Shown in pieces: positions 2,980 to 53,239 of a DNA stretch of 54,414 nt (positions are counted from its first letter, which is position 1; each line of letters starts with the position of its first letter). The position numbers were made by a program, and so were the translations under genes. A model generated the notes under the pieces. It had not been told where the DNA came from and did no database searches. It saw only the letters and a program-made list of their open reading frames with translations. Source of the stretch: a bacterium (GTDB lineage Bacteria > Patescibacteriota > CPR2 > UBA1875 > JAJYID01); the NCBI GenBank assembly GCA_021796415.1, contig JAJYJC010000003.1, forward strand, positions 1 through 54,414. The letters run 5' to 3'.

Positions 2980-3260
2980 GTCATTCTGGCCTGCCTGCCG
3001 GCAAGGCGGGCTTGGCCAGAATCTATATTAAGGTTTTCTGGGATGAGGCGGCTATATCCACCTTTGTTTTATGCTCAATCCCACACCCGGTGTGGGATTG
3101 AGCATCCGGAATCTATACCAGAAAATCTGAGTTCTAAAGTCAATTTCGAAATGGCAAAGGGCAAGGGATTCCGGGCAAGCCAGGATGACACGTTTAGCAA
3201 GTTTGGAATTGAATGTTGAAGTTTGATTGGAAATTGTAAATTAGAAATTGAGAATTGAAT
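2980..3260. repeat. Composite repeat cluster (GTCAT/ATGAC REP-like + 20-bp module + CCCACACC palindrome + heptamer arm)
   Basis: GTCATTCTGG..CCAGAATC (2980-3023), ATGCTCAATCCCACACC-C-GGTGTGGGATTGAGCAT (3071-3105), GATTCCGGGCAAGCCAGGATGAC (3167-3189), TTAGAAATTGAGAATTG. Confidence 0.8.
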
Positions 3261-4210: not shown

Positions 4211-4448
4211 TGTCCAGGGAGTATACTATCGGTTCAGCGCCAAGATGAAGGCAGAAGAGTTGGGCCTGACGGGTTTTGCTGAAAATGAATCCGACGATAG
4301 CGTATTGGTGGTCGTGGAAGGCGAAGCAGAGAAAATAAAGGCCTTTTTAAGATGGCTTGAGGTCGGTCCGCCGATGGCCGAGGTGGAAAACCTGGAAATT
4401 ACAAAAGAAAAGTATTCCGGCGAATATAAAGAATTCGAGGTCAGATAA
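4179..4448 (+). CDS. acyP: Acylphosphatase
   Basis: VTGDVQGVYYR..LGLTGFAEN..GPPMAEV. Confidence 0.93.
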   Translation: MERAKIKVTGDVQGVYYRFSAKMKAEELGLTGFAENESDDSVLVVVEGEAEKIKAFLRWLEVGPPMAEVENLEITKEKYSGEYKEFEVR

Positions 4449-5278
4449 TGCTCTATATCGTGTCAACGCCGATTGGCAACCTGGAAGACATTACCTTGAG
4501 AGCAATTGAAATTTTGAAGAGTGCCGATGTCATTGCCTGCGAAGATACCCGCCATACAAAGATATTGCTTGATAAATATGGGATTGGCGAGAAGCATTGT
4601 AAGGATATTAACGTCGTTTGTCATTCCGACTGCCGCCACGCTAGTGGAAAGCGGAGGAATCCCTTAACAATGAGGGCAGAAAATGATTGTAATTATAATA
4701 AGGAAAAGGGATTCCTCGACTCGTCTCTCCGAGAAGTCGCTCGGAATGACAGAGAGGGGAACCCTATCAAACTTATCAGCTATCATCAGCATTCAGGGTT
4801 GGTAAAAACCGAAAAAATTATCAGCATGTTGAAAGAAGGTAAAAATGTGGCTCTTGTGACGGATGCAGGAACGCCAGGCATCTCTGATCCGGGCAGTAAA
4901 CTGATCGCTGAAGCGATTACAAGTGACATTGAGGTCACAGCAGTTCCGGGTCCAGCCGCATTTGTATCTGCATTATCGGTTTCGGGCTTTGACACTTCTG
5001 AGTTTGTATATGCAGGATTTCTTCCCCACAAAAAGGGAAGGCAGACAAAGCTTAAAGAAATTGCCGCCGAAAAAAGGACAATCGTTTTATATGAATCAGT
5101 GCACCGGATAAAAAAATTACTCGGAGAATTAGCGGAGATTATACCAGATAGGGAGGTTTGTGTTTGCCGGGAGTTGACCAAAAAATTTGAAGAAATTTAC
5201 CGTGGGACAGCAAGTGAAATATTAGATAAAATCATCGAAAAGGGCGAATTTGTGGTAGTTATAAAGGAGACGAGATGA
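4448..5278 (+). CDS. rsmI: 16S rRNA C1402 2'-O-methyltransferase RsmI with a ~55-aa repeat-derived in-frame insert
   Basis: LYIVSTPIGNLEDIT, CEDTRHT, DAGTPGISDPG, VCRELTKKFEE; paired REP-like elements at 4620-4750. Confidence 0.96.
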   Translation: MLYIVSTPIGNLEDITLRAIEILKSADVIACEDTRHTKILLDKYGIGEKHCKDINVVCHSDCRHASGKRRNPLTMRAENDCNYNKEKGFLDSSLREVARNDREGNPIKLISYHQHSGLVKTEKIISMLKEGKNVALVTDAGTPGISDPGSKLIAEAITSDIEVTAVPGPAAFVSALSVSGFDTSEFVYAGFLPHKKGRQTKLKEIAAEKRTIVLYESVHRIKKLLGELAEIIPDREVCVCRELTKKFEEIYRGTASEILDKIIEKGEFVVVIKETR

Positions 5279-5889: not shown

Positions 5890-5896
5890 TTTTTTT

Positions 5897-5978
5897 GTCA
5901 TTCCCGCGCAGACGGGAATCCAGACATTAATATAGATTCCCGCCTGCGCGGGAATGACAAATGATGGGTAGGAATGAC
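5897..5978. repeat. REP-like doublet (dRS3/RPE-like, CGTC family)
   Basis: GTCATTCCCGCGCAGACGGGAATCCAG ... AGATTCCCGCCTGCGCGGGAATGAC ... GGAATGAC. Confidence 0.85.
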
Positions 5979-11954: not shown

Positions 11955-12185
11955 TGGAATTTTCAATTTCTAATTTTCTCTTCGAGCCTGAGCGGCCTCA
12001 GAGCCGAAGGCAATCAATACCCAAGTCTCAAATCATAATGTTATGGTTTCACTACACTAATATAGTTTAGTATAGCGCTGTGCAAGGGTCAGACCCTTGT
12101 AAATTAAGAGTATTTCACAAAGTAAGCCATTTTGAGGAACGAAGAATCTATCTAGATCCTTCGTCGTACCTCCTCAGGATGACGA
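11955..12185. repeat. Composite repeat cluster
   Basis: Heptamer arm interrupted by TTCGAGCCTGAGCGGCCTCAGAGCCGAA; CAAGGGTC-A-GACCCTTG (12083-12099); GCCATTTTGAGG..CCTCAGGATGAC (12125-12183). Confidence 0.7.
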
Positions 12186-14598: not shown

Positions 14599-14996
14599 AG
14601 ATTGTAATTCAGGGAATCGAATATAGGGTTATTGCAGAAGGAGCCTATGCCACTAAGTCCGAACCGGATAAACCGTATAAAAAATATAAATTGAATGACA
14701 ACAAAGCTTTAGTTATTTCAGATGAAGAGGATTTTGCGTTTTTCGGAGAAGATTTTGGGGAGTTAGATCTGGAACCGGGAGAGAAAAACATTAATTATAA
14801 AGGAACAGAATTCAAGCTTGCCACAGAAGATTATCAGATTTTAGAAAAAGCTGTGTTCGGAGAGCCGGAAGGGAACTTGAAATTCTGGGATTATGAGAAC
14901 GGGGAGCAAGTTATAAGTCTTGGGGTAAAAGAAAATGGCGAGAGGAGTGATGTGGCGGGAAAAGTCATTGATAAAAAAAGTATTAAATTTATATAG
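14595..14996 (+). CDS. Hypothetical protein (DUF4178-like)
   Basis: ATGA overlap; beta-rich acidic/aromatic composition; family call tentative. Confidence 0.6.
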   Translation: MKIVIQGIEYRVIAEGAYATKSEPDKPYKKYKLNDNKALVISDEEDFAFFGEDFGELDLEPGEKNINYKGTEFKLATEDYQILEKAVFGEPEGNLKFWDYENGEQVISLGVKENGERSDVAGKVIDKKSIKFI

Positions 14997-15220
14997 ATTC
15001 CCGTCTTCGCGGGAATGACGGGGAAGGGTCAGAATGACGAATTAGGTTTGAAAATTGACAAATTGGTAATTGAATGAAAATTAGAAATTGAGAATTGAAA
15101 ATTATTGGTTAAGGGATGATTCCGGTCAAGTCAGAATGACAAATTTCAGACATTAAAAAATTGGGAATTGTTTAGAAATTGGATATTAGCCTGCCTGCCG
15201 GCAGGCAGGATTTAGGAATT
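14995..15220. repeat. Composite repeat cluster
   Basis: AGATTCCCGTCTTCGCGGGAATGAC, CAGAATGAC, heptamer arm, GATTCCGGTCAAGTCAGAATGAC, CCTGCCTGCCGGCAGGCAGG. Confidence 0.8.
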
Positions 15221-20104: not shown

Positions 20105-21925
20105 ATGGATTCTAAAGAACTAAGGCAAAAGTTTCTGAAATTTTTTGAAGAGAAGGGGCACAAAGTTATCCCTTCAGCTTCGCTTGTGCCCGAAAACGAC
20201 CCGTCGGTGCTTTTCACCACCGCCGGCATGCATCCGCTCGTCCCTTATATCATGGGGGAGGATCACCCGAAAGGCAAAAGGCTGACTGACTCTCAGAAAT
20301 GCATTCGCACTGATGATATCGAAGATGTGGGCGATAGAGTTCACCATACTTTTTTTGAAATGTTGGGAAATTGGTCGTTTGGTGACTATTTCAAGGAAGA
20401 TGCCATTAAATACAGCTACGAGTTTTTGACTGATAAAAAATGGCTTGGTATAGATAAAAACAAACTAGCCGTAACTGTGTTTATGGGGGACAAGGACGCG
20501 CCTTTTGACGAAGATTCATATAACATCTGGCTTTCACTGGGAATTCCCAAAGAAAGAATTGCAAGGCTTGGCAAAAAGGACAATTGGTGGGGACCGGCCG
20601 GCGAGACCGGGCCGTGCGGGCCGGACACGGAAATGTTCTTTTGGTCAGCAAAAGAAAAAGCTCCTGAAAAGTTTGACCCAAATGACGACAGATGGACTGA
20701 GATTTGGAATGATGTTTTTATGCAGTACAACAAGAAAAAGGATGGGAAATTTGAAACGCTGAAACAAAAAAATGTCGATACCGGCATGGGGCTCGAGAGG
20801 ATGCTGGCGGTTCTAAACGGCTTTGACGATGATTACCGGACCGATTTGTTTACACCGATAATTAAACGAATTGAAAAGCTATCTGATATGGAGTACGGCG
20901 AAAAGACTGACGAAGAATATGTAAAGGAAGATTTGCAGTGCTGGGTTGATGTAAGGATTCAGTTTAGAATCATTGCAGATCATGTAAAGGCGGCGATTTT
21001 TGCAATTAATGATGGAGTTATACCTTCAAATAAACAAGCCGGTTATGTTACACGCCGATTGATTAGGCGAACTATCGTTAAAGGCCACCAGGTCGGCATA
21101 AAAGAGAATTTTCTCGCTGATTTTGTCGAAGTAATCCAAGAAATTTATAAAGGTATCTATGATCTGAAGGCTGATTTAATTACAAAAGAGCTAAAGTCTG
21201 AAGAGGATAAGTTTAGAAAGACTCTGCAAGTTGGCTTGAAAGAATTTGAAAAAGTTTCAGTTAAATCAATTTCAGGAAAAGACGCTTTTGATTTGTACCA
21301 GAATTATGGTTTTCCCTTGGAAATGGTTGAGGAGTTGGCAAAAGAGAAAAAGCTAAAAGTAGATAAGAAGGGATTTGAAGAAGAATTTAAAAAACATCAG
21401 GAGCTTTCGCGCAGCGCTTCGGCCGGTATGTTCAAGGGCGGTTTGGCGGATGATTCTGAAATGGCGACCAAATATCATACGGCAACACATTTATTGAATG
21501 CAGCGCTGAGAGAGGTTTTGGGTGATCATGTCGAGCAAAGGGGGTCAAATATCAATGCCGAAAGGTTGAGATTTGACTTCTCTCATGACGTGAAAATGAC
21601 CGATGAGGAAAAGAAAAAAGTTGAGGATCTGGTCAATGGACAGATTGCCAATAATTTACCCGTTACAAAGGAAGAGATGACAGTCGAAGAAGCCAAAAAA
21701 CAAGGCGCCGTAGGAGTATTTGGTGAGAAATATGGTGAAAAAGTCTCGGTCTATACCATTACCAATCCCACACCGGGTGTGGGATTGAAGGGGGAGCGTG
21801 TTTTCAGCCGGGAAATCTGCGGCGGGCCGCATGTCAAAAACACCGGTGAGCTGGGACGCTTCAAAATTAAAAAGGAAGAATCAAGCTCGAAGGGGGTGAG
21901 GAGAATTAAGGCGGTTTTAGAGTAA
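20105..21925 (+). CDS. alaS: Alanine--tRNA ligase lacking the C-Ala domain
   Basis: LFTTAGMHP, HTFFEMLGNWS, VDTGMGLER, HTATHLL, ICGGPHV; ends at GVRRIKAVLE. Confidence 0.96.
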   Translation: MDSKELRQKFLKFFEEKGHKVIPSASLVPENDPSVLFTTAGMHPLVPYIMGEDHPKGKRLTDSQKCIRTDDIEDVGDRVHHTFFEMLGNWSFGDYFKEDAIKYSYEFLTDKKWLGIDKNKLAVTVFMGDKDAPFDEDSYNIWLSLGIPKERIARLGKKDNWWGPAGETGPCGPDTEMFFWSAKEKAPEKFDPNDDRWTEIWNDVFMQYNKKKDGKFETLKQKNVDTGMGLERMLAVLNGFDDDYRTDLFTPIIKRIEKLSDMEYGEKTDEEYVKEDLQCWVDVRIQFRIIADHVKAAIFAINDGVIPSNKQAGYVTRRLIRRTIVKGHQVGIKENFLADFVEVIQEIYKGIYDLKADLITKELKSEEDKFRKTLQVGLKEFEKVSVKSISGKDAFDLYQNYGFPLEMVEELAKEKKLKVDKKGFEEEFKKHQELSRSASAGMFKGGLADDSEMATKYHTATHLLNAALREVLGDHVEQRGSNINAERLRFDFSHDVKMTDEEKKKVEDLVNGQIANNLPVTKEEMTVEEAKKQGAVGVFGEKYGEKVSVYTITNPTPGVGLKGERVFSREICGGPHVKNTGELGRFKIKKEESSSKGVRRIKAVLE

Positions 21926-29890: not shown

Positions 29891-30066
29891 AAAATCCTAA
29901 ATCCTAAATCCTAATTTCTAAACAAATTCGAAATTATAAATCCAAAACATTTTGAATTTGAAGTATTTGAATTTATAATTTGTTTAGTATTTCGATATTA
30001 GAATTTAGTATTTAAAAGTTAAGGGATTCCTCGGCTTGTCGCTACCATGAAGCCGCTCGGAATGAC
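29891..30066. repeat. Heptamer-period hairpin element plus REP-like half element
   Basis: CTAAATCCTAATTTCTAAACAAATT...ATTTGTTTAGTATTTCG...TTAGAATTTAG; AAGGGATTCCTCGG..GCTCGGAATGAC (30021-30066). Confidence 0.8.
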
Positions 30067-31970: not shown

Positions 31971-32152
31971 GGGCCTATAGTTAAACGGTATAACGCGGCG
32001 TTCGTCCCGCACATATTTTCAAAATATTTAGGGGTTATCGTATAATGGCTATTACATGGCATTCGCATTGCCAAAATCTGGGTTCGATTCCCAGTAACTC
32101 CACCAATATGTGCGGGACCGTATTCCGAGTTCAATTCTCGGTAGGTCCACCA
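31971..32152 (+). ncRNA. Split/interrupted tRNA-Ala-like frame enclosing a complete tRNA
   Basis: 5' half GGGCCTA-TA-GTTA AACGGTA TAAC-G-CGGCG-TTCG; 3' half CCG-TATT-CCGAG TTCAATT CTCGG-TAGGTCC-ACCA; 7-bp acceptor with G3:U70; 14-bp IR at 32004-32017 and 32105-32118. Confidence 0.8.
32031..32105 (+). tRNA. tRNA-Ala(CGC)
   Basis: GGGGTTA/TAACTCC acceptor with G3:U70, TGGCA-TT CGC AT-TGCCA anticodon arm, CTGGG TTCGATT CCCAG T arm, encoded ACCA; 75 nt. Confidence 0.95.
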
Positions 32153-32173
32153 TTTGACTAACTAATATTTTTT

Positions 32174-32758
32174 ATGAGTATCAAAGAGGGTCAAATCTGG
32201 AAATTGGCAAGACCACTGCTGGAAAAGGGTCTGAATAAAGACTTTGTGCTGCATGCCCAAGGCGTTTTAGCAGCGGTGAAATTAATTGCAAAAGAAGAGG
32301 GGGGAGATCTGGAAATTCTCATTCCTGCCGCTATTTTGCATGATGTGGGTTGGGCGAAAGTTCCAAATGACAATCAAAAAACGAAAGATACGGAAAAAAG
32401 AGCCGAGGGAGAAAAGCTTCATCTGATTTTTGGAGCGGAACTAGCTGGAGATATAATGCAAAAATTGGATTATAGCGATAAGGCAGCCAAGGAAGTGGCC
32501 AAAATCATTAAATCCCATATGGACACAGAGCCCAATGATAAGAATACCAAAATTTTAATAGATGCGGATGCCTTGAGTGATGTTTTTAGGGATAATTTTT
32601 ATGCAGAAAGCAAGGCTTAAGGCAATGACCTTGAGAGCCATTTAGAAATCAGGTCTGGAAATAAATTTTTCACTAAAACAGCCCGGGAAATTTTTGATCG
32701 CGAACTAGCAGCAAGAAAAAGGGAGATTGAGGAAAATGCGAGTCAAAGAAGCGCTTAA
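32174..32758 (+). pseudogene. HD-domain protein interrupted by an in-frame TAA at 32618-32620
   Basis: VLHAQGV, AILHDVGW, IIKSH, LIDADALS; the frame stays open 45 codons after the TAA (FFTKTAREIFDRELAARKREI). Confidence 0.62.
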
Positions 32759-33752
32759 GTGGGCAAACCGACAATTGAAAAACAATAAAGTTTCTGAGCC
32801 GGAAAAATCGGCAGAGTTTTTGCTGCGGCAAGTTTTAAGCGCAGGAGCTCAGTCCCACACCGGGTGTGGGATTGAATGGGATAAAGCCAAGTTAATCGCA
32901 AATCCCGATTACGCATTAACTGGGAAGCAGGAGGAGCAATTCCGCCAGTTCATCGAGAGACGCAAGAAGCACGAACCGGTTTGGTATATAACGGGGCGCA
33001 TAGAATTTTATGGACTGGATTTGGAGGTCAGCCAGGATGTTTTGATTCCGCGGCCGGAAACAGAGTTTCTGGTTGAAGAGGTGCTCTCCGTCATTCCCGC
33101 GGAGGCGGGAATCCAGAGAAAGGATTGTATAGATTCCCGCCTCTGCGGGAATGACAGTAAAAAGGGCGGGAATGACAATGCTGCTAGGATTTTGGAGCTG
33201 GGAACAGGGAGTGGAGCGATATCTCTTGCGCTTGCGAGCCAATTCAAGGGTAAAAAAGAAGGATTCTGGTCAAGCCAGAATGACGTAGAAATTTTTGCTT
33301 CGGATATTTCCAGTGATGCACTTAAGATTGCCAAAAGGAATGCAAAGAGGTTAGGACTGGATTCCCGATCGGGGTCGGGAATGACAAAAATAGTCGGCAT
33401 TGAGTTTCGGCAGGGAGACTTGCTGGCGCCATGGCAAGGTGAAATGTTTGACATCATTGTTGCCAATTTGCCATACATACCGCATGAAGATCTGGATTCG
33501 TTAGCACTCGATATCCATCACTGGGAACCAAGGGTGGCTTTGGACGGAGGCAAGGAAGGTCTGGAGATTTACGAAAGGCTGATAAAACAGGCAAAAGATT
33601 ATTTAAATGAAAATTATCAAATGTTTTTTGAAATAGGCATTGGCCAAGGGAAGGGAATTCGCAAATTAGCCGAAAAATACTTACCGGAGGCAAGCGTTGA
33701 AATAAAAAAAGATTATGGCGACATTGACCGCATCGCTATAATCAAAGGCTAG
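32736..33752 (+). CDS. prmC: Release factor glutamine methyltransferase PrmC with four repeat-derived inserts
   Basis: EPVWYITG, VLIPRPETE, ELGTGSGAI, DIS..AL, ANLPYIP, ALDGGKEGL, EIG, KDYGDIDR. Confidence 0.95.
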   Translation: MRVKEALKWANRQLKNNKVSEPEKSAEFLLRQVLSAGAQSHTGCGIEWDKAKLIANPDYALTGKQEEQFRQFIERRKKHEPVWYITGRIEFYGLDLEVSQDVLIPRPETEFLVEEVLSVIPAEAGIQRKDCIDSRLCGNDSKKGGNDNAARILELGTGSGAISLALASQFKGKKEGFWSSQNDVEIFASDISSDALKIAKRNAKRLGLDSRSGSGMTKIVGIEFRQGDLLAPWQGEMFDIIVANLPYIPHEDLDSLALDIHHWEPRVALDGGKEGLEIYERLIKQAKDYLNENYQMFFEIGIGQGKGIRKLAEKYLPEASVEIKKDYGDIDRIAIIKG

Positions 33753-33757
33753 AAATC

Positions 33758-33833
33758 TGGTGGACCCTACCGGGATCGAACCGGTGACCTCATCCATGCC
33801 ATGGATGCGCTCTACCAACTGAGCCAAGGGCCC
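33758..33833 (-). tRNA. tRNA-Ala(GGC)
   Basis: Reverse complement GGGCCCTTGGCTCAGTTGGTAGAGCGCATCC-AT GGC AT-GGATG..CCGGTTCGATCCCGGTAGGGTCCACCA; G3:U70, A32-U38. Confidence 0.96.
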
Positions 33834-33844
33834 CTGAAATAAAT

Positions 33845-33909
33845 GTCATTCTGAACTTGATTCAGAATCCAGACTGATTATATAGATTCCGGATCAAGCC
33901 CGGAATGAC
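33845..33909. repeat. REP-like doublet
   Basis: GTCATTCTGAACTTGATTCAGAATCCAG ... AGATTCCGGATCAAGCCCGGAATGAC. Confidence 0.85.
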
Positions 33910-34886: not shown

Positions 34887-35402
34887 ATGAAGACAATCGC
34901 CACCATATCAAACAAGGACTTCGGCCTGGACGAAACAAAAAGGAAGGACGAGCTGGAGTTAAGAAACGCCGCACGAGCGGTGCTTTTTAATGAGAAAAGT
35001 GAGGTGGCGATAATTGCGGTGCCGACCGGGAACTATCACAAAATACCGGGCGGTGGAGTTGAGGAAGGCGAAGATATAAAATCTGCATTGAAAAGAGAGA
35101 TTTTAGAAGAGGTCGGCTGTGAAGCTGAAATTATGGCGGAAATAGGGCAGATATTGGAGTACCGTGACCCGATAAAGCAATATTCCTTTGGGTTTTTGGC
35201 AAAAGTGAAAGGCGAGATTGGTAAACCGAAGTTTACGGATTCCGAGAAGGAAGAAGACTTCCAGATTGCCGAGTGGCTGCCCATTGATGAGGCGATTAAA
35301 ACCTTCGAAAAAGACAAGCCAAACTTTTTGATGGCACAGTTTATGTCGAAAAGAGATAAAATGTTTTTGGAAAAAGCAAAAGAAATAATGGAGGAAAAAT
35401 GA
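34887..35402 (+). CDS. NUDIX hydrolase
   Basis: Nudix box GGVEEGEDIKSALKREILEEVG. Confidence 0.92.
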   Translation: MKTIATISNKDFGLDETKRKDELELRNAARAVLFNEKSEVAIIAVPTGNYHKIPGGGVEEGEDIKSALKREILEEVGCEAEIMAEIGQILEYRDPIKQYSFGFLAKVKGEIGKPKFTDSEKEEDFQIAEWLPIDEAIKTFEKDKPNFLMAQFMSKRDKMFLEKAKEIMEEK

Positions 35403-36662: not shown

Positions 36663-36725
36663 GTCATCCTGAGGCCTTGACGCCGAAGGATCTCATGTTA
36701 GATTCTTTATTTCATTCAGAATGAC
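36663..36725. repeat. REP-like doublet overlapping the first ATG of leuS
   Basis: GTCATCCTGAGG..GAAGGATCTC..AGATTCTT..CAGAATGAC. Confidence 0.8.
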
Positions 36726-39588
36726 AAAAAAAATGGAAAAATACAATCATAAAAAAATAGAGTCCAAGTGGCGGGAGATTTGGGAAAAATCAGGGATTTA
36801 CAACACTGATTTAGCATCAAAAGACCCTAAATTTTACAATTTGATTATGTTTCCGTATCCAAGCGGGGAATATTTGCATATCGGCCATGCTTACTCAGAC
36901 ACCGGAGCGGATGTTTATGGCAGGCACAAAAAGCTAAATGGCTACAATGTTTTTATGCCGATTGGTTATGACGCTTTTGGATTGCCAGCTGAGAATTATG
37001 CGATAAAAGCCGGTGTGAATCCAAAGGAAAGTACGGCAAGCAACATTGAACACGCCGAAAAACAGTTAAAGAGCTGGGGCTGCTCCTTTGATTGGTCGCA
37101 CAAAATGACAACTTCTGACCCAAGCTATTATAAATGGACGCAATGGTTGTTTTTGAAGCTTTACAAAAAAGGACTGGCTTATCAAAAGGAAGCGCCGGTG
37201 AACTGGTGTCCGGAGTGTAAGACGGTTCTTGCGAATGAACAAGTGATCGAAGGGCTTTGCGAGAGATGTGACTCGGAAGTCGTACAGAAGAATCTAAAGC
37301 AATGGTTTTTCAAAATTACCGATTACGCCGACAGATTGATAAAAGATTTGGATAAGGTAGATTGGCCGGAATCATCTATCACTAAGCAAAGAAATTGGAT
37401 AGGCAAAAGCGAAGGCGTGGAAGTACAATTTGAAATTCGAAATTCGAAATTCGAAAAAGAAGAGACCAAAATTACAGTTTTTACCACCAGAGTCGACACA
37501 ATATATGGTTGCACATATCTAGTTTTGGCGCCGGAACATCCATTGGTGGAAAAAATTACAGTTCCAGAGCAGAAGAAAGCAGTTGAGAAATATTTAATTC
37601 AAACTCAAAAATTAACGGAAATCGAGCGCCAGTCGCTTGAAAAAGAAAAAACAGGAGTCTTCACCGGCGCTTATGCCATAAATCCTTTTAACAATGAGGA
37701 AGTGCCGATTTGGATTGCTGATTATGTGCTTTACGGCTATGGAACCGGCGCGGTGATGGCCGTCCCGGCGCATGATGAGCGCGACTATGAGTTTGCCAAA
37801 AAATATAAATTGCCGATGAAGGAATCCGTGGCTCCATACACTAAGTTTGAAACCAAGCCGGGAAAAGAAACGGAAGTACGCGACCTTGCCATAGCGGTCG
37901 TCCGTAATCCGAAAGACAATAAGTATTTGTGCCTTAAGTGGAAAAAGACAAAATGGCAGGCATTTCCATCCGGAGGGACTGACGGCGAGGAAATTGTTAC
38001 AGCGGCAAAAAGAGAGGTTTTAGAAGAAACCGGCTATAAAAACATTAAATTCATTAAGAAATTCAGAAATACTATCTTTGAGGAATTTTACCGGCCTCAT
38101 AAGGATTCAAATGTCATTGCTCACTCCATTTATTCGCTCTTTGAACTTGAGAATGATGAGCGGCAAGAGGTGGCTCAGAAGGAAAAGGATCAGCATGAAG
38201 CAGTTTGGGTCAAGGCAGAAGAAGTCGAAAATTTCTTGAATATAAAACATCTGAAGATTTTCTGGAAGTCTCTACAGGCTGGAGAGGAGATGCCATTCAC
38301 TGGTCCCGGGAAGCTGGTGAACTCGGGTGAGTTTAATGGGTTATTCTCAGATGAGGCTAAAAAGAAAATGGCTGAGTGGTTGAAAAAGAAAGGCTTTGGA
38401 AGGCGCAAAATTAATTATCGTCTTCATGACTGGTCTATCGGCCGGCAGAGATATTGGGGAGCGCCGATACCTATTATTTATTGTGAAAAGTGTGGTGTGG
38501 TGCCGGTTCCTGAAAAAGATCTGCCGGTAAAGTTGCCGGAAAATGTCAAAGATTTTAAGCCAAAAGGTACCGGCAAAGGGCCATTGGCATCAGTAAAAGA
38601 ATTTGTTGACACCAGGTGTCCGTATTGCGGAGGCAAGGCGGAAAGAGAAACTGATACCATGGATACCTTTGTTGATTCAAGCTTCTACTTCATGCGCTAT
38701 CCAAGCGTTGGGGATGATAAAGAGATGATGGAGCCGAATATGACGAAGAAATGGTTGCCGGTTGATATGTATGTCGGCGGGGCAGAGCATGTCACAATGC
38801 ATCTTTTATACGCCCGATTTATAACCAAAGCCATGCATGACATGAAAATGATCAGTTTTGACGAGCCGTTTTTGAAGCTGCGCCATCAGGGCATGATTCT
38901 GGGCCCGGACGGCAAGAAAATGTCGAAATCAAAGGGCAACGTTATCATTCCGGACGAGGTTATAAGAGAACATGGCGCCGACGCTTTTCGAACCTACATT
39001 TTGTTTATGGGAAGGTTTGAAGACGGCGGTCCGTGGAATCCGAAAGGATTGGTCGGCGTCAAAAGGTTCTTGGAGAAAATTTGGAAAATGCATGAAAGCA
39101 CATGGCCAAAAATTTCAAATACGGAAATTCAGGCAAAGCTTGCGCGGACGATCAAGAAAGTCGGCGCGGATATTGAAGATTTTAAGTTTAATACCGCCAT
39201 TGCTTCGCTTATGAAGTTTTCAAATGTTTTGCAGGAAGAAAAGAACCCGATATCCAAGGGAGACTTTGAGAAGCTCATCGTTATTTTGTCGCCTTTTGCG
39301 CCATTTATGGCTGAAGAGTTCTGGGAAAAGCTGGGTAACAAGGATAGCGTACATGTTCAGGGTTGGCCGGAATATGACGAGAAATTAATAAAAGAAGAAA
39401 CCGTTACTGTGGCGGTGCAAATAAACGGCAAGGTTAGAGGACAGGTCGTGGCGAACGCAGAGGCGAACCAAGATGAAGTTTTGGAGCTGGCAAAAGCTAG
39501 CGAAAAAGTGCAGAAATATCTGGAAGGCAAGAAACTCGAGAAAGTCATATATGTTCCGGGCAAGCTGCTTAGCCTTGTCATAAGCTAA
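36721..39588 (+). CDS. leuS: Leucine--tRNA ligase with inserted NUDIX domain
   Basis: MFPYPSG.YLHIGH, FTTRVDT, GTGAVMAVPAHD, RQRYWGAPIP, KMSKS; Nudix-like box at 37972-38037; start may be 36733. Confidence 0.97.
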   Translation: MTKKMEKYNHKKIESKWREIWEKSGIYNTDLASKDPKFYNLIMFPYPSGEYLHIGHAYSDTGADVYGRHKKLNGYNVFMPIGYDAFGLPAENYAIKAGVNPKESTASNIEHAEKQLKSWGCSFDWSHKMTTSDPSYYKWTQWLFLKLYKKGLAYQKEAPVNWCPECKTVLANEQVIEGLCERCDSEVVQKNLKQWFFKITDYADRLIKDLDKVDWPESSITKQRNWIGKSEGVEVQFEIRNSKFEKEETKITVFTTRVDTIYGCTYLVLAPEHPLVEKITVPEQKKAVEKYLIQTQKLTEIERQSLEKEKTGVFTGAYAINPFNNEEVPIWIADYVLYGYGTGAVMAVPAHDERDYEFAKKYKLPMKESVAPYTKFETKPGKETEVRDLAIAVVRNPKDNKYLCLKWKKTKWQAFPSGGTDGEEIVTAAKREVLEETGYKNIKFIKKFRNTIFEEFYRPHKDSNVIAHSIYSLFELENDERQEVAQKEKDQHEAVWVKAEEVENFLNIKHLKIFWKSLQAGEEMPFTGPGKLVNSGEFNGLFSDEAKKKMAEWLKKKGFGRRKINYRLHDWSIGRQRYWGAPIPIIYCEKCGVVPVPEKDLPVKLPENVKDFKPKGTGKGPLASVKEFVDTRCPYCGGKAERETDTMDTFVDSSFYFMRYPSVGDDKEMMEPNMTKKWLPVDMYVGGAEHVTMHLLYARFITKAMHDMKMISFDEPFLKLRHQGMILGPDGKKMSKSKGNVIIPDEVIREHGADAFRTYILFMGRFEDGGPWNPKGLVGVKRFLEKIWKMHESTWPKISNTEIQAKLARTIKKVGADIEDFKFNTAIASLMKFSNVLQEEKNPISKGDFEKLIVILSPFAPFMAEEFWEKLGNKDSVHVQGWPEYDEKLIKEETVTVAVQINGKVRGQVVANAEANQDEVLELAKASEKVQKYLEGKKLEKVIYVPGKLLSLVIS

Positions 39589-43002: not shown

Positions 43003-45699
43003 ATGTATCTCAAAAACATTCATGTTGCAGGATTTAAGTCTTTCGGAGGGAAGAATGTTTTGGATTTCCCCGAAGCCGGAAGCGCCAAGCAGAAAAGTTT
43101 TGCCGCGGTTGTCGGACCGAACGGAAGCGGAAAGAGTAATATTGCCGACGCTATCCGCTGGGTTTTGGGCGAACAATCTTCGAAGCTTCTCAGAGTGAAA
43201 AAAGGCGAGGACGTCATATTCTTCGGCAGTGCCAAGAAGGGCAGGGGATCATTCTCGGAAATTTCTTTAACCTTAGATAATGCTTGTTCCTTCCGTCATC
43301 CTGAGGTATCGAAGGATCTCAAAAGTAATTTCCAATTTCCAATTTCCCTGCCTCGCCGGCAGGCAGGCAATTTCCAATCAAATTCAAATGTTCAAAATTC
43401 AAAAGGATTGGATTCCCGCCTTCGCGGGAATGACATGGAAATAAATGGAAATGACAATGGTGTTGACCTTTCCGAGATTGAAATTACCCGCCGCCTGTAT
43501 CGAAACGGCGATAATGATTACTTTGTTAACAGGAAAAAGGTCAGGCTGTTCGATGTGCAGGAACTGCTTGCAAAATGCGGGGTGGGAAGATCTACTTATA
43601 CAGTTATCGGACAGGGGATGGTTGATTCTTTGCTTTTTTATGGTCCGGCTGAGCGGAAAGTTCTCTTCGAGGAAGCATCGGGCGTGAAGCAGTATGAGAT
43701 CAAGCGCGCTGAATCTTTACGCAAACTAGACTCAACAGACAAAAACATTATCCGCATTAAAGATCTTTTGTATGAATTGGAGCCGAGATTGAAGTCGGCT
43801 GAGCGAAACTTCAAAAAATACCAAAAAAAGCAGGATATAGAGAAGGAGCTGGATGAGCTGAGCCGCAAATATTATTCCGGCGTATTTTCTCAAATTCAAT
43901 CCAAGAAAGAAAAGCTGCAGAAGGAACTCACAGAATTTAAGAAGAAAGAATCCGGCCTGCAGTCAGAAATTACTGCACTGGAAGCAAAAATCGCCAAAGG
44001 TTTAAAAGCCGAGGGTTCTGACAAGAAGGAGAAAGAGCTTCGAGGGAATATTGACTCGCTTGCTGCAAGAAGCGATGATCTTGCGCGGCAAATTTACAGA
44101 TTAGAGGCTGAAAATCAAGCGTCGAAGTCTGTATTCTCAAGGGAGAAGGAAGGGCTTTTCGGTGAAAGAGATAGGATTTCTCGGGACATCCGAGAGTTAG
44201 AAGAAAAAATAGCCAGGCTAAATACAGAGGGCAGTGAAAATCAGGCGAGGCTTGATAGCGCCAAGAGAGAGCTTGCCGAGCTGGACAAAAGAATTGTTTT
44301 TTCAAATGACACTCTGGCAAAAATTCAACGGGAAAGCTTGTCTTTGACCAAGGATGACATTCGAAAAAAGCTAGAAGAGATTTACAAAAATTACTCGCTG
44401 GTGGTGGCAAAAATGAATTCCGTCACTGATCTGAAAAGTTTCGGCAAACTCAAAAAAGAGGCGGAAAGTGTAGCAAATGCCTTAGATGCTTTGGCAGAAG
44501 ACATCAAAAAAAGCCAGAGCACCGACACCAGCCTGCTTGAAAGCAAGCAAAAAGAGATAAAGGGGCTGGTTCAAAATAAGGAAAAAATACTCAGTATCAT
44601 TCAGGATTTAAGGGTCAGATCCATTTCACGGGAAGACATCTTGAAGAATTCAAAAAGCCGGGCCGAGAGCTTAAAGAAGCAATTAGAAGATACAGTTGCC
44701 AAGATAGGCAGTTTAAAAGAGCCGGAAGCCGGAGGTTTGAAAAAGATTACCGAGTTAAACCGGGAAAAAACAGGCATAGACGAGGAAATTTCTGAGTTAA
44801 AACTTAAGCTGGAGGAGTTGGCGTCAAAAAGCGCTTCCGGTGACTATACTAAGATTTTGGAAGATGAGAAGTCAAGGAGAAGAGAGCTCGCGGGTGTTCA
44901 AGAAGAAATTGGCGCTTTCAATATTGATCTGGCAAAGGTAGAGACGCGCGAGGAAGATTTGCGCGATGAAATCCATGAGTTTCTGGGCGAGACATTTTAC
45001 AAGGGTCTGACCCTTGCAGAGGACAGTCCTCTGCAAGGCGGGAACTTTGACCATCTGATGCCAAAAATCCAGCGCCTTCGAAAGGACATGTATGCGCTCG
45101 GCGAGATCGACCAGTTTGTCGGGGAAGAGTTTGAAGAGCTGGAGGGGAGGGTTGGTGAATTGCGTGAACAATATGAGGATTTGGAAAAGGCAAAAAAAGA
45201 CATATTGAAAGTTATAGGAGAGTTAGACGCGCGCATCAAGACACAGTTCAAAACCACATTTGTAAAAATTTCAGAGGAGTTTACCAAATATTTCAAAATT
45301 CTTTTTGGCGGGGGCAATGCGGCATTGAATCTAGAAACAGATGAGGAGGGAAACTTTGGCGTGGAGATTACAGCGACGCCGCCGGGCAAGAAAAACCAGT
45401 CTCTAAATTCGTTATCAGGCGGAGAAAGGGCTCTGACCTCGATCGCGCTTCTTTTTGCTATTTTAAGCGTAAATCCAAGTCCATTCTGTGTACTGGATGA
45501 GGTAGACGCTTCACTTGACGAAACAAATACTGAAAGATTTTTGGAAATTTTAAAAACTCTCTCACATAAAACTCAATTTATTGTCGTTACACACAACCGC
45601 GAAACCATGAAGAAAGCCGACGTTATCTACGGCGTCTCCATGGACGACAATCATGTGTCGCAAGTGTACTCGCTGAAACTGACAGAAGTTGGAACATGA
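43003..45699 (+). CDS. smc: SMC-family ATPase (short, no evident hinge) with repeat-derived insert
   Basis: GPNGSGKSN Walker A, IGQG Q-loop, LSGGE, LDEVDASLD, VTH; composite repeat at 43295-43455. Confidence 0.9.
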   Translation: MYLKNIHVAGFKSFGGKNVLDFPEAGSAKQKSFAAVVGPNGSGKSNIADAIRWVLGEQSSKLLRVKKGEDVIFFGSAKKGRGSFSEISLTLDNACSFRHPEVSKDLKSNFQFPISLPRRQAGNFQSNSNVQNSKGLDSRLRGNDMEINGNDNGVDLSEIEITRRLYRNGDNDYFVNRKKVRLFDVQELLAKCGVGRSTYTVIGQGMVDSLLFYGPAERKVLFEEASGVKQYEIKRAESLRKLDSTDKNIIRIKDLLYELEPRLKSAERNFKKYQKKQDIEKELDELSRKYYSGVFSQIQSKKEKLQKELTEFKKKESGLQSEITALEAKIAKGLKAEGSDKKEKELRGNIDSLAARSDDLARQIYRLEAENQASKSVFSREKEGLFGERDRISRDIRELEEKIARLNTEGSENQARLDSAKRELAELDKRIVFSNDTLAKIQRESLSLTKDDIRKKLEEIYKNYSLVVAKMNSVTDLKSFGKLKKEAESVANALDALAEDIKKSQSTDTSLLESKQKEIKGLVQNKEKILSIIQDLRVRSISREDILKNSKSRAESLKKQLEDTVAKIGSLKEPEAGGLKKITELNREKTGIDEEISELKLKLEELASKSASGDYTKILEDEKSRRRELAGVQEEIGAFNIDLAKVETREEDLRDEIHEFLGETFYKGLTLAEDSPLQGGNFDHLMPKIQRLRKDMYALGEIDQFVGEEFEELEGRVGELREQYEDLEKAKKDILKVIGELDARIKTQFKTTFVKISEEFTKYFKILFGGGNAALNLETDEEGNFGVEITATPPGKKNQSLNSLSGGERALTSIALLFAILSVNPSPFCVLDEVDASLDETNTERFLEILKTLSHKTQFIVVTHNRETMKKADVIYGVSMDDNHVSQVYSLKLTEVGT

Positions 45700-51070: not shown

Positions 51071-53239
51071 ATGGATAAATTTGTCTTAAAACATGCGCAT
51101 AAGCCGACCGGCGACCAGCCTCAGGCGATAGAGAAGCTTGCGTCTGGCATAGAAAAGGGTCTCACGCGAGAGATTCTGCTTGGCGTGACCGGATCCGGCA
51201 AGACTTTCACGGCGGCAAATGTGATTCAAGAGATTAATAAGCCGACGCTGGTTATTTCCCATAACAAAACTTTGGCGGCACAACTGTATAGCGAATTCAA
51301 GGAATTCTTCCCCGACAACGCTGTCCGCTACTTTGTTTCATACTACGATTATTACCAGCCGGAGGCCTACATCCCGAGAACCGACACCTACATTGAGAAA
51401 GACGCAAAAATCAATGAAGAGATCGATCGCTTGAGAAATGCGGCCACGGCAGCCCTGCTGTCACGAAAAGACGTGTTAATAGTCGCCAGTGTCTCCTGCA
51501 TCTATGGCCTTGGCTCTCCGGAAGACTATTTCCAGATGAGAGTGGACTTTGAGGCCGGCAGGGCAAAGAACCAGGAAAAGGCCATGCGCCAGCTGCTCGA
51601 GGTACAGTACGAGCGAAATGACAAGACATTTGAACGGGGGAATTTCCGGGTGCGGGGCGATGTACTCGATATATTTCCGATTTACGAGGAAATAGGCTAT
51701 CGCATTCAATTTGATGGGAATGTTGTGGAAGCTATCCGAAGCATCAATCCGGTGACAGGCGAGCTCGGCAAAAAAATAGATAAATTGTCTGTCTTTCCGG
51801 CGCGCCACTTTGTCACGCCGAAGGAAAGGCTGCACTCTGCCATTCCGGAAATCAGGACAGAGCTGGCAGTAAGGCTTAAAGAGCTAAAAACGCAAGGGAA
51901 ATTGCTTGAAGCGCAAAGGCTCGAGCAAAGGACGAACTTCGACCTGGAAATGATTGAAGAAACGGGCTTTACCTCCGGCATTGAGAACTATTCCCGTTAT
52001 CTCTCCGGCAGGAAGGCGGGTGAGGCGCCGTCAACTTTGCTTGATTTCTTCCCGGACGATTATCTTCTTCTCATAGACGAATCGCACATGACTATTCCAC
52101 AGATTCGGGGGATGTATAACGGCGACCGGTCCCGAAAAGAAACCTTAGTTGAGCATGGTTTCAGGCTTCCCTCAGCGCTCGACAACCGTCCGCTTCACTT
52201 TTCGGAATTCAAGAAATTAATGGGCCAAACCGTATTTATCTCTGCCACCCCGGGACCCTATGAGTTTAAGGTTGCAAGTGAGGGCGAGATAGAGTCAGCT
52301 GATGAATATTATGAGGCGGTAAGAAATAATGATCAATTTCCAGTTTCCAATTTCCAATCAATTTCCAATGAGCAAAATTCAAACAAAAAAGGTCATTCTG
52401 GGGACGATAGGACTCCAGAATCGGATTTGGACAAGGATTCTGGCCAAGCCAGAATGACGGGAAGGGGTTTCCCTTGGATTGCCGAGCAGATCATTCGCCC
52501 GACCGGGTTGCTTGAGCCTCTTGTCGATGTCAGGCCGACCAAAAACCAGATAGACGACCTTATCCACGAGATTCGCCAAACGGTCAAGAAAAAGCAGCGG
52601 GTTTTGGTGACGACCCTGACCAAAAGAATGGCAGAAGACCTAAGCGAATATCTGAAAGAGTTGGGTATCAAGGTTACATATTTGCACTCCGAAATTAAAA
52701 CACTTGAGCGCCCGGAAATTTTGAGGGACCTTCGAAAGGGTGTTTATGATGTGGTAGTTGGAATCAATCTGCTCCGAGAAGGCTTGGACCTGCCGGAAGT
52801 GTCGCTGGTTGGCATTTTGGACGCAGATAAGGAAGGATTTTTGCGAAGCAACCAGTCGCTAATTCAGACGATGGGCCGGGCCGCCAGGCATCAAGAAGGC
52901 CGGGTCATAATGTACGCCGATAATATCACCGGGTCGATGAAGCAGGCGATAGGCGAGACACAGCGCAGGCGCAAGATTCAGGAAGAATACAACAAGAAAC
53001 ATGGCATCACGCCGAAAACCATTCAGAAAGCTATCCGAGATGACCTGGCACAAAAGGTGCCGGAAGAGAAGAAGATAGAAATCTCAGATATTCCAAAGGA
53101 TGAGGTAGAGAGAATTGTGCGGGACATGAGAAAACAAATGGAAATAGCTTCGAAGAATTTAGAATTTGAAACAGCCGCCAAACTGCGCGACCAGATTCGT
53201 GACATAAGGGCAAAACTGGAATCGAAAAAGATTAAATAG
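51071..53239 (+). CDS. uvrB: Excinuclease ABC subunit B with ~60-aa repeat-derived insert
   Basis: [64 protein letters not shown]. Confidence 0.98.

Follow-up and report, generated by a model that had tools for sequence, protein, structure and literature searches.

How can a gene that encodes a modifier of translation factors take up four palindromic repeats and still be read through in frame? This question is raised by prmC, the gene for release factor N5-glutamine methyltransferase, on contig JAJYJC010000003.1 of assembly GCA_021796415.1, which comes from a bacterium of the Patescibacteriota. The stretch that was analysed covers positions 1 to 54,414 of this contig, and this whole stretch of 54,414 nucleotides is called the window here. 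An earlier note, made from the letters of the window, had described prmC as hit four times by independent palindromic insertions. The answer that is considered likely here is that hairpin repeats of the repetitive extragenic palindromic (REP) type landed in prmC and are translated as loops, that frame-keeping insertions in dispensable loops survive purifying selection, and that exchange between alleles has brought all four together.

The prmC gene and its four inserts

The gene lies on the forward strand at 32736..33752, with an ATG at 32736 and a TAG stop codon at 33750-33752, and its intact frame encodes 338 amino acids (aa). The product scores 242.8 bits on TIGR03534, the NCBIfam model of PrmC, for which the curated cut-off is 199.1. 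In Pfam it is matched by PrmC_N (PF17827) and by methyltransferase domains, and the class I methyltransferase domain comes with GxGxG and (N/D)PPY-type motifs. The PrmC motifs are retained, as the earlier note had stated: GTGSG at aa 156-160, D190 after β2, and N244-L-P-Y247. These residues are invariant across a set of 119 homologs with 36-100% identity, and NLPY in place of NPPY is found in the whole clade, including orthologs that carry no insert. When compared with L003 over 269 shared codons, prmC of the window has a dN/dS of 0.07; compared with its two closest orthologs the value is 0.15-0.19, and prmC is therefore under purifying selection, in agreement with the selection for function that had been proposed. 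The protein is also longer than a typical PrmC, since insert-free orthologs have 278-292 aa.

All four palindromes are real and are found at, or not more than 3 nt from, the places where they had been described. Insert a (32841..32876, + strand) has a length of 36 nt and encodes aa 36-47, AGAQSHTGCGIE. It contains the palindrome CAGTCCCACACC-G-GGTGTGGGATTG of what is called family 2 below, with a core at 32849-32875 whose 13-nt arms (32849-32861 and 32863-32875) are 92% complementary. In the alignment, insert a is missing from about 10 orthologs. Insert b (33089..33176, + strand) is a head-to-head dimer of CGTC-tagged hairpins resembling REPs and the Neisseria Transformation Sequence (NTS), followed by a trailing half unit; it encodes aa 118-147 at a net gain of 81 nt. 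Its unit A is found at 33089-33116 (CGTCATTCCCGCGGAGGCGGGAATCCAG) with a core at 33090-33113 (GTCATTCCCGCGGAGGCGGGAATC), unit B at 33132-33156 with a core at 33132-33155 (GATTCCCGCCTCTGCGGGAATGAC), and the half unit GGCGGGAATGAC at 33165-33176. The two units provide 31-nt arms that are 87% complementary, and as single-stranded DNA the insert has a folding energy of -29.8 kcal/mol (z = -8.6). The three-part layout of insert b had been described as shared with an intergenic element at 5897-5978; the alignment agrees with this, and the sequence at 14996-15038 can be added.

The remaining two inserts are single hairpins on the opposite strand. Insert c (33258..33287, - strand; 30 nt, aa 175-184) has a CGTC-tagged hairpin at 33262-33284 and reads TACGTCATTCTGGCTTGACCAGAATCCTTC in reverse complement. 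It is missing in the closest orthologs, P0002 and P0003, and present in P0005-P0008. Insert d (33360..33398, - strand) has a TGTC-tagged hairpin at 33360-33386 with the stem ATTCCCGA/TCGGGAAT, followed by a 12-nt tail, and encodes aa 209-221 (DSRSGSGMTKIVG) at a net gain of 30 nt. The earlier note had set the start of this palindrome at 33357, 3 nt away from that of the hairpin at 33360-33385. When single-stranded DNA is compared with shuffled sequence, the folding z-scores of the palindromes range from -2.9 to -8.6.

In a codon-level comparison with the insert-free gene of L006, the net gains at a, b, c and d are 36, 81, 36 and 30 nt. Summed up, this is a gain of 61 codons, which is all that separates 338 from 278 aa, and the inserts therefore explain all of the extra length. 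In a phmmer alignment with PrmC of E. coli, gaps coincide exactly with b (query 122-149 against 108-110), c (11 aa) and d (11 aa), while insert a is accounted for by the PrmC_N match, which spans 83 aa on a Pfam profile of 71 positions (+12 aa). The description of prmC as a gene with four separate palindromic inserts, each of which preserves the frame, and with its motifs intact is confirmed.

Identity of the repeats

Judged by their sequence, inserts b, c and d are members of the CGTC-tagged REP superfamily, which includes dRS3 and NTS of Neisseria, the Rickettsia palindromic element RPE-6 and the Ssn-related motifs (SRMs), and insert a is a member of a second, rare palindrome family. The superfamily is characterised by a terminal CGTC or TGTC, a stem of 8-9 bp starting with AT, a loop of 4-5 nt and a CCA-type tail, and this combination of tag, stem, loop and tail is found here. 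Unit A of insert b has the layout CGTC-ATTCCCGC-GGAG-GCGGGAAT-CCAG and differs from the 28-nt NTS consensus CGTCATTCCCGCGMAVGCGGGAATCYRG at one position (27/28), where PMC11893778 accepts at most one mismatch for an NTS; four further copies in the window have two mismatches. The tag of unit B, in reverse complement, is TGTC. Inserts c and d have variant stems: in c, the CGTC tag is joined by a stem of 7 bp and a loop of 5 nt, and in d, the TGTC tag by a stem of 8-9 bp and a loop of 4-6 nt, the exact lengths varying with the inclusion of the ninth pair. The dRS3 definition, ATTCCC-N8-GGGAAT, fits units A and B, but neither c, with its ATTCTGG stem, nor d, which has ten bases between the hexamers. 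PMC11893778 also defines a degenerate SRM pattern, HGTCWYN(0-2)YYVSBRHN(0-5)WNVSBRGN(0-2)RNCYNB. It matches four copies in the window (at 5896, 5932, 14993 and 29604), where 0.14 would be expected, and no unit in prmC; on inspection of the sequence, unit A departs from it at a single position, the first loop base being G where H is required.

The repeats are also abundant elsewhere. In the window, GGGAATGAC occurs in 8 copies (0.54 expected) and AGAATGAC in 15 (1.9 expected), and head-to-head dimers are found at 5897/5935, 33090/33132, 33845/33885 and 52392/52436. The first of these is part of the intergenic reference copy of the three-part composite (5896..5978, + strand; dimer plus half unit), both units of which fit the published SRM pattern, and the third is an intergenic dimer of the superfamily of b, c and d (33845..33909, + strand) just downstream of tRNA-Ala(GGC). 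The exact pattern GTCATTCCCGC-N4-GCGGGAATCCAG is present in at least 120 species genomes of many phyla, from Neisseria to Chloroflexota, Planctomycetota, Patescibacteria and one nanoarchaeal metagenome-assembled genome (MAG). Within the source community, hairpin k-mers reach 18,000x, compared with ~25x for the genome. On inspection, the repeat units contain few stop codons, and five of their six frames are open.

The palindrome of insert a, AATCCCACACC-NGG-TGTGGGATT, is found again at 3071-3105 and in the alanyl-tRNA synthetase gene (AlaRS) at 21763-21787, where it is read in another frame (TNPTPGVGL against AQSHTGCGIE). A 20-base pattern of this family matches only two MAGs among 185,579 species genomes, which is why the family is called rare, and a 22-base pattern has no match in public species genomes.

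Some side observations concern the repeats of the window in general. On the + strand the tag GAATGAC is found 24 times and GTCATTC 8 times; the GTCATTC copies are mostly left halves of dimers or of longer elements, and the hairpin singletons observed share one orientation. This bias suggests strand-specific insertion or selection. The + strand also holds 51 of the 55 open reading frames (ORFs) in the window. A further palindrome family, GCCTGCCTGCCGGCAGGCAGGC, is present at 15189, 21980, 34709, 41256 and 43347, often nested within GTCATTC...GAATGAC units and once inside SMC. Another palindrome, CAAGGGTC(A/T)GACCCTTG, is found at 12083, 12998 and 45000-45038, once intergenic, once in a class V aminotransferase and once in SMC, where it adjoins a hairpin with a 12-bp stem.

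Recurrent insertion in the same loops

The orthologs form a series with 57-81% identity and lengths of 278-362 aa, and about ten of them have no insert at all. When insertions of at least 6 aa are counted in the homolog set, they are found almost only in four places: after residue 35 in 17/119 homologs, after ~125 in 19/119, after ~173 in 28/119, and after 206-211 in 7/119. Many of these insertions carry peptides of the REP type, such as VIPAETGIQ...WIPRSSPRM, SREGGNP, DSRLRGND, HPELVSGS and SLSSRAERSGVEGSL, and they belong to differing repeat families, orientations and reading frames. As an example, DSRSGSGMT in the window and DSRLRGND in L004, both at site 4, are encoded by different hairpins in different frames. 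The protein P0006 from a candidate division WS5 bacterium, which has 362 aa and is annotated as PrmC, has inserts at all four sites. Recurrent insertion in the same four loops points to these loops being permissive.

Position of the inserts in the fold

An AlphaFold2 model of the protein, based on a 21-sequence alignment, has a mean predicted local distance difference test (pLDDT) score of 74.7. Its best structural matches are E. coli PrmC (2b3t_A, with a TM-score of 0.78 normalised by target length) and T. maritima HemK (1nv8). The pLDDT falls below 50 at aa 39-45, 122-146, 175-182 and 212-219, which are the four inserts, and the insert peptides are predicted to be disordered; aa 247-265, after NLPY, is a low-confidence stretch without an insert. 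According to the model, insert a is located between two helices of the N-terminal domain (22-36 and 50-55). Inserts b, c and d each follow a helix (107-117, 161-173 and 193-205) and come immediately before the strands β1, β2 and β3 (150-156, 184-189 and 222-224). In class I methyltransferases, S-adenosylmethionine (SAM) and the substrate bind at the C-terminal ends of β1-β3-type strands. From this fold topology we infer that the loops before β1, β2 and β3 face away from the SAM and substrate site, and so the 338-aa enzyme most likely still works.

Other interrupted genes in the window

In-frame insertion is not confined to prmC. In-frame palindromic inserts are also present in no fewer than six further housekeeping genes of the window, namely those for UvrB, SMC (at three positions), Obg, AlaRS, an RsmI-like methylase and a class V aminotransferase. 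In UvrB, an insert of 64 aa (aa 401-467, at 52271-52471) becomes visible in comparison with UvrB from B. caldotenax (2fdc_A) and includes a CGTC hairpin doublet at 52392-52458.

Several smaller observations were made along the way. The UvrB insert also holds a short CAATTTCC-type repeat at 52340-52372, and this repeat flanks the SMC inserts near 43340-43400, too. The RsmI-like TP_methylase gene (4448-5278) has a 130-nt element at 4620-4750 with GTCATTCCGAC...GTCGCTCGGAATGAC termini, and its protein exceeds the Pfam profile by ~47 aa; right ends like that of this element (GCCGCTCGGAATGAC) are found at 30060, 39701 and 49170. The leucyl-tRNA synthetase (36721-39588) has a NUDIX hydrolase domain (aa 390-504) between its editing domain and the second half of its catalytic domain, and a separate NUDIX gene is located at 34887-35402.

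A mosaic allele

The prmC allele of the window is a recombination mosaic with breakpoints at the edges of inserts. It has inserts a and d in common with L001 and b and d with L002, while the segment with insert c is closest to that of the distant L004. Around site 1, the window is 96.7% identical to L001, compared with 55.8% to L002 and 57.3% to L004. Around site 2 the identity is highest to L002 (96.5%, with 49.3% to L001 and 58.7% to L004), and around site 3 it is highest to L004 (84.8%, with 47.1% to L001 and 47.2% to L002). The other four segments have 88-97% identity to both L001 and L002. From 32837 to 33051 the informative sites place the window with L001, and from 33086 to 33231 with L002, and these sites are clustered: in 0 of 10000 permutations were the runs as few as observed. 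The switches coincide with the left edges of a and b and with both flanks of c. The diverged tracts cover conserved core codons with many synonymous changes, so they were imported and are not alignment noise. A near-identical site-1 insert of 28-31 aa is found on three different backbones (P0002, P0006 and P0010), which likewise speaks for recombination as the means by which the inserts came together. In a tree of the backbone sequences the insert states are scattered, and as recombination makes this tree unreliable, it was used only qualitatively.

As the allele is a mosaic, this lineage need not be where its four inserts arose. They were probably assembled by allele exchange, at least partly, rather than by four insertions. 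The idea of independent hits therefore holds in so far as there were separate insertion events, with at least two repeat families in both orientations, but it probably does not hold for the history of this one gene, in which exchange between alleles is the probable source of the combination.

Origin of the four-insert allele

The preferred explanation would run as follows. Short hairpin repeats of the REP type land inside prmC and would be read through as extra loops. As the units have nearly no stop codons and a single unit adds ~30 nt, insertions that keep the frame and fall in dispensable surface loops would survive purifying selection. The tolerated places would be one loop between helices in the N-terminal domain and the three loops leading into β1, β2 and β3 of the Rossmann fold, and the same loops are colonised again and again by differing repeat families in related lineages. 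Segments with inserts are most likely swapped between co-occurring relatives by homologous recombination, until one allele has all four. The mobiliser may be a single-strand nuclease of the Ssn type, with a GIY-YIG domain, or another trans-acting factor that would be encoded elsewhere in the genome.

A number of points weigh against this explanation. No GIY-YIG/Ssn protein, RAYT (Y1 transposase) or insertion sequence transposase was found in the 54-kb window by regular-expression searches for GIY-YIG and Pfam scans of 52/55 window ORFs, and the study's three metatranscriptomes have no transcripts of the prmC locus. Among the orthologs compared there is no clean pair of an empty and a filled site, as the flanks of polymorphic inserts are diverged; because the polymorphic inserts sit in diverged tracts, insertion boundaries, target sequence and target-site duplication are unreadable. 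The structural argument uses a medium-confidence model and fold topology, not measured distances. Finally, prmC has 4 of the ~11 intragenic events in only 2.1% of the coding sequence of the window (P = 6e-5, or ~0.003 when corrected for 55 genes). Tolerance is the simplest account of this excess, with room for some target preference on top.

It is worth noting, as a separate observation, that small Ssn-like ORFs with GIY-YIG features (YILASxRNGTLYxGVT) are found at L106 6147-6476 and L181 1616-2032. Both are directly preceded by an NTS-like hairpin, which is the published arrangement of NTS and ssnA, and both loci are unrelated to the window (one is from a Methylotenera MAG, the other from another genome).

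Among the alternatives, the one that survives best is that the hairpins and loops have been domesticated, and are kept because they are useful as junctions for recombination or transformation, as mRNA structure elements or as new protein surfaces. This is unlikely, but there are observations in its favour. The tract edges fall at 33051-33086, where b starts at 33089, at 33231-33299, which includes c at 33258-33287, and at ~32837, where a starts at 32841. An identical d hairpin is present in L005, an ortholog with 61% identity, and in Neisseria, NTS repeats modulate the integration of transforming DNA, as described in the 2025 paper on the Ssn nuclease (PMC11893778). However, only three tracts were observed, and the hairpins decay: there are stem mismatches at site 1 of L003 and site 3 of L005, and site 3 of L003 is a remnant. 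In addition, about ten orthologs have no inserts, and the insert peptides are predicted to be disordered. By analogy with Neisseria, it can be speculated that NTS-like hairpins within genes serve as sites where incoming single-stranded DNA is crossed over or processed under an Ssn-type nuclease, and that hairpin-bounded segments of essential genes are shuffled between strains as cassettes. Such shuffling would explain why tract edges coincide with insert edges and why identical inserts are found on diverged backbones, and if true, the link between hairpins and breakpoints would tie the Ssn/NTS system to the shuffling of alleles within genes; the chances of this being correct are considered low. 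Patescibacteria are regarded as naturally competent.

Less probable still is a target-site hotspot, where prmC or its place between tRNA-Ala genes would attract the insertion machinery and the density of inserts would reflect targeting. The earlier note had suspected a hotspot of this kind between two tRNA-Ala genes. One of them, tRNA-Ala(CGC) (32031..32105, + strand), is upstream of an HD-domain gene at 32174-32620; the other, tRNA-Ala(GGC) (33758..33833, - strand), is a conserved neighbour of prmC in the clade. The excess of events in prmC (P = 6e-5) would fit targeting, and so would the empty sites 2-4 of L006, which are A-rich (AAAAAT, AAGAAT) and might represent a weak target motif. But tRNA-Ala(GGC) is also found next to the insert-free prmC of L006 and the nearly insert-free one of L007, homologs in other gene neighbourhoods have the same loops colonised, and the other interrupted genes of the window have no tRNA neighbours. 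One and the same site can be occupied by differing families, orientations and frames, which is more easily explained by structural tolerance than by one target sequence. The tRNA hotspot is therefore rejected, as the tRNA-Ala(GGC) neighbour is kept beside insert-free orthologs.

The neighbourhood has some peculiarities of its own. The orientation of tRNA-Ala(GGC) in the window and in L005 is opposite to that in L003, L004, L006 and L007. At L003 4007-4180, a complete tRNA-Ala(GGC) is flanked by what appear to be the 5' half and the 3' half of another tRNA-Ala, which is identical to that of the window. The HD-domain gene is present in the window and in L002, but L003 lacks it, and there prmC comes directly after the tRNA.

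It is very improbable that the locus is a chimera of metagenome assembly, in which high-copy repeats made the contig jump from one strain to another and no real molecule has all four inserts. Such an error could be expected from hairpin k-mers at up to 18,000x and from a unitig graph that is broken at 33088-33116 and 33358-33386; related strains do co-occur, and the mosaic breakpoints coincide with repeats. However, Logan unitigs from an independent public run (X1, a mine drainage metagenome) tile 32100-33765 with 0 mismatches and a uniform depth of 24-28x (24.4-28x), and the only close variant is at ~5x. These unitigs span 32100-32999, 32970-33116, 33088-33386 and 33358-33765. The one of 299 nt physically joins the right part of b with c and d, and another covers a plus 740 nt upstream. 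The a and d junctions are found again in L001 and the b and d junctions in L002, both of them assembled independently. A precise-excision joint was not seen, but contigs cannot show absence. The inserts are thus present in independent read data, all segments being covered without mismatch, and with uniform depth and junctions common to independent assemblies an assembly artefact is judged unlikely.

That prmC is a decaying gene, inactive and with its inserts tolerated since a second copy, or none, is needed, is hardly credible: a 54-kb window leaves room for a second copy and NPPY reads NLPY, but the frame is intact, dN/dS is 0.15-0.19, NLPY does not vary in the clade, insert-free orthologs included, the score is above the PrmC cut-off despite the inserts, and Pfam scans of 52/55 window ORFs found no second PrmC in the window.

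Comparison with known systems

In the literature searched, REP elements in the sense found here have not been described for genomes of the candidate phyla radiation. Among better known systems, bacterial MITEs (miniature transposable elements with inverted repeats) such as ERIC, the MITEs of Anabaena and QMITE1 of Coxiella are similar in that they are non-autonomous and can be read through inside genes (PMC10969869). MITEs are 70-300 bp long and have terminal inverted repeats and target-site duplications, whereas the units here are single hairpins of 23-28 nt with no recognisable duplication. REPs and the REPINs associated with RAYT transposases are also short hairpins, are often paired as inverted doublets able to fold into a single long hairpin, and, when intergenic, are found right after genes. 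Their tag is GTAG, while it is CGTC or TGTC here, and no Y1 transposase domain was found in 52/55 window ORFs. Di Nocera et al. 2013 (PMC3733652), who described the CGTC-tagged REPs, likewise report no RAYT associated with CGTC repeats.

The CGTC-tagged REPs, with dRS3 and NTS of Neisseria and the SRMs, are closer. Features in common are the CGTC/TGTC tag, the 8-bp stem starting with AT, a loop of 4-6 nt, the CCAG tail, head-to-head dimers and a spread across phyla. Most of the Neisseria repeats lie between genes and in clusters (NIMEs), whereas many of those found here are intragenic and translated. Inserts c and d also deviate in sequence, c by its ATTCTGG stem and d by having ten bases between ATTCCC and GGGAAT where dRS3 has eight, and the 54-kb window has no ssnA-like gene.

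The closest parallel is found in Rickettsia, whose palindromic elements were reportedly described by Ogata et al. in 2000 and 2002. In both cases palindromes are inserted in frame and translated in housekeeping genes at sites that the fold tolerates or, in PrmC, probably tolerates, orthologs without them exist, and there are several families per genome (PMC10969869, PMC3733652); uvrB is interrupted in Rickettsia and in the window. Di Nocera et al. class RPE-6 and RPE-4 as CGTC-1 and CGTC-4 REPs, with CGTC-1 being the same as Neisseria dRS3, and the proposed kinship of the window repeats with RPE-6 follows from this published equivalence (PMC3733652). The same survey lists in-frame copies within genes, among them double hits in uvrA and in uvrB, and describes at most double insertions per ORF, whereas here four sites are occupied in one gene of 1 kb. 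The units here are 30-88 nt long, compared with ~100-150 nt for the classical RPE-1. The host is different, too: Rickettsia is an intracellular alphaproteobacterium, and the window is from an uncultured bacterium of a Patescibacteria/WS5-type lineage in mine drainage.

There are practical consequences as well: proteins with such inserts are longer and score lower in domain searches, and metagenome assemblies break at the repeats, whose depth reaches 18,000x. On the other hand, the ortholog series provides a natural map of the insertion-tolerant loops of PrmC. The kind of event is already known, as in Rickettsia; new are the host, the density of four occupied loops within 1 kb, and the recurrent colonisation of loops together with cassette-like recombination. 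A pan-bacterial hairpin family of the dRS3/NTS/RPE-6 type can decorate an essential modifier of translation factors at four loops, most likely without destroying it, and selfish DNA inside protein-coding genes, classically a curiosity of Rickettsia, extends to a Patescibacteria/WS5-type lineage that is uncultured and has a small genome.

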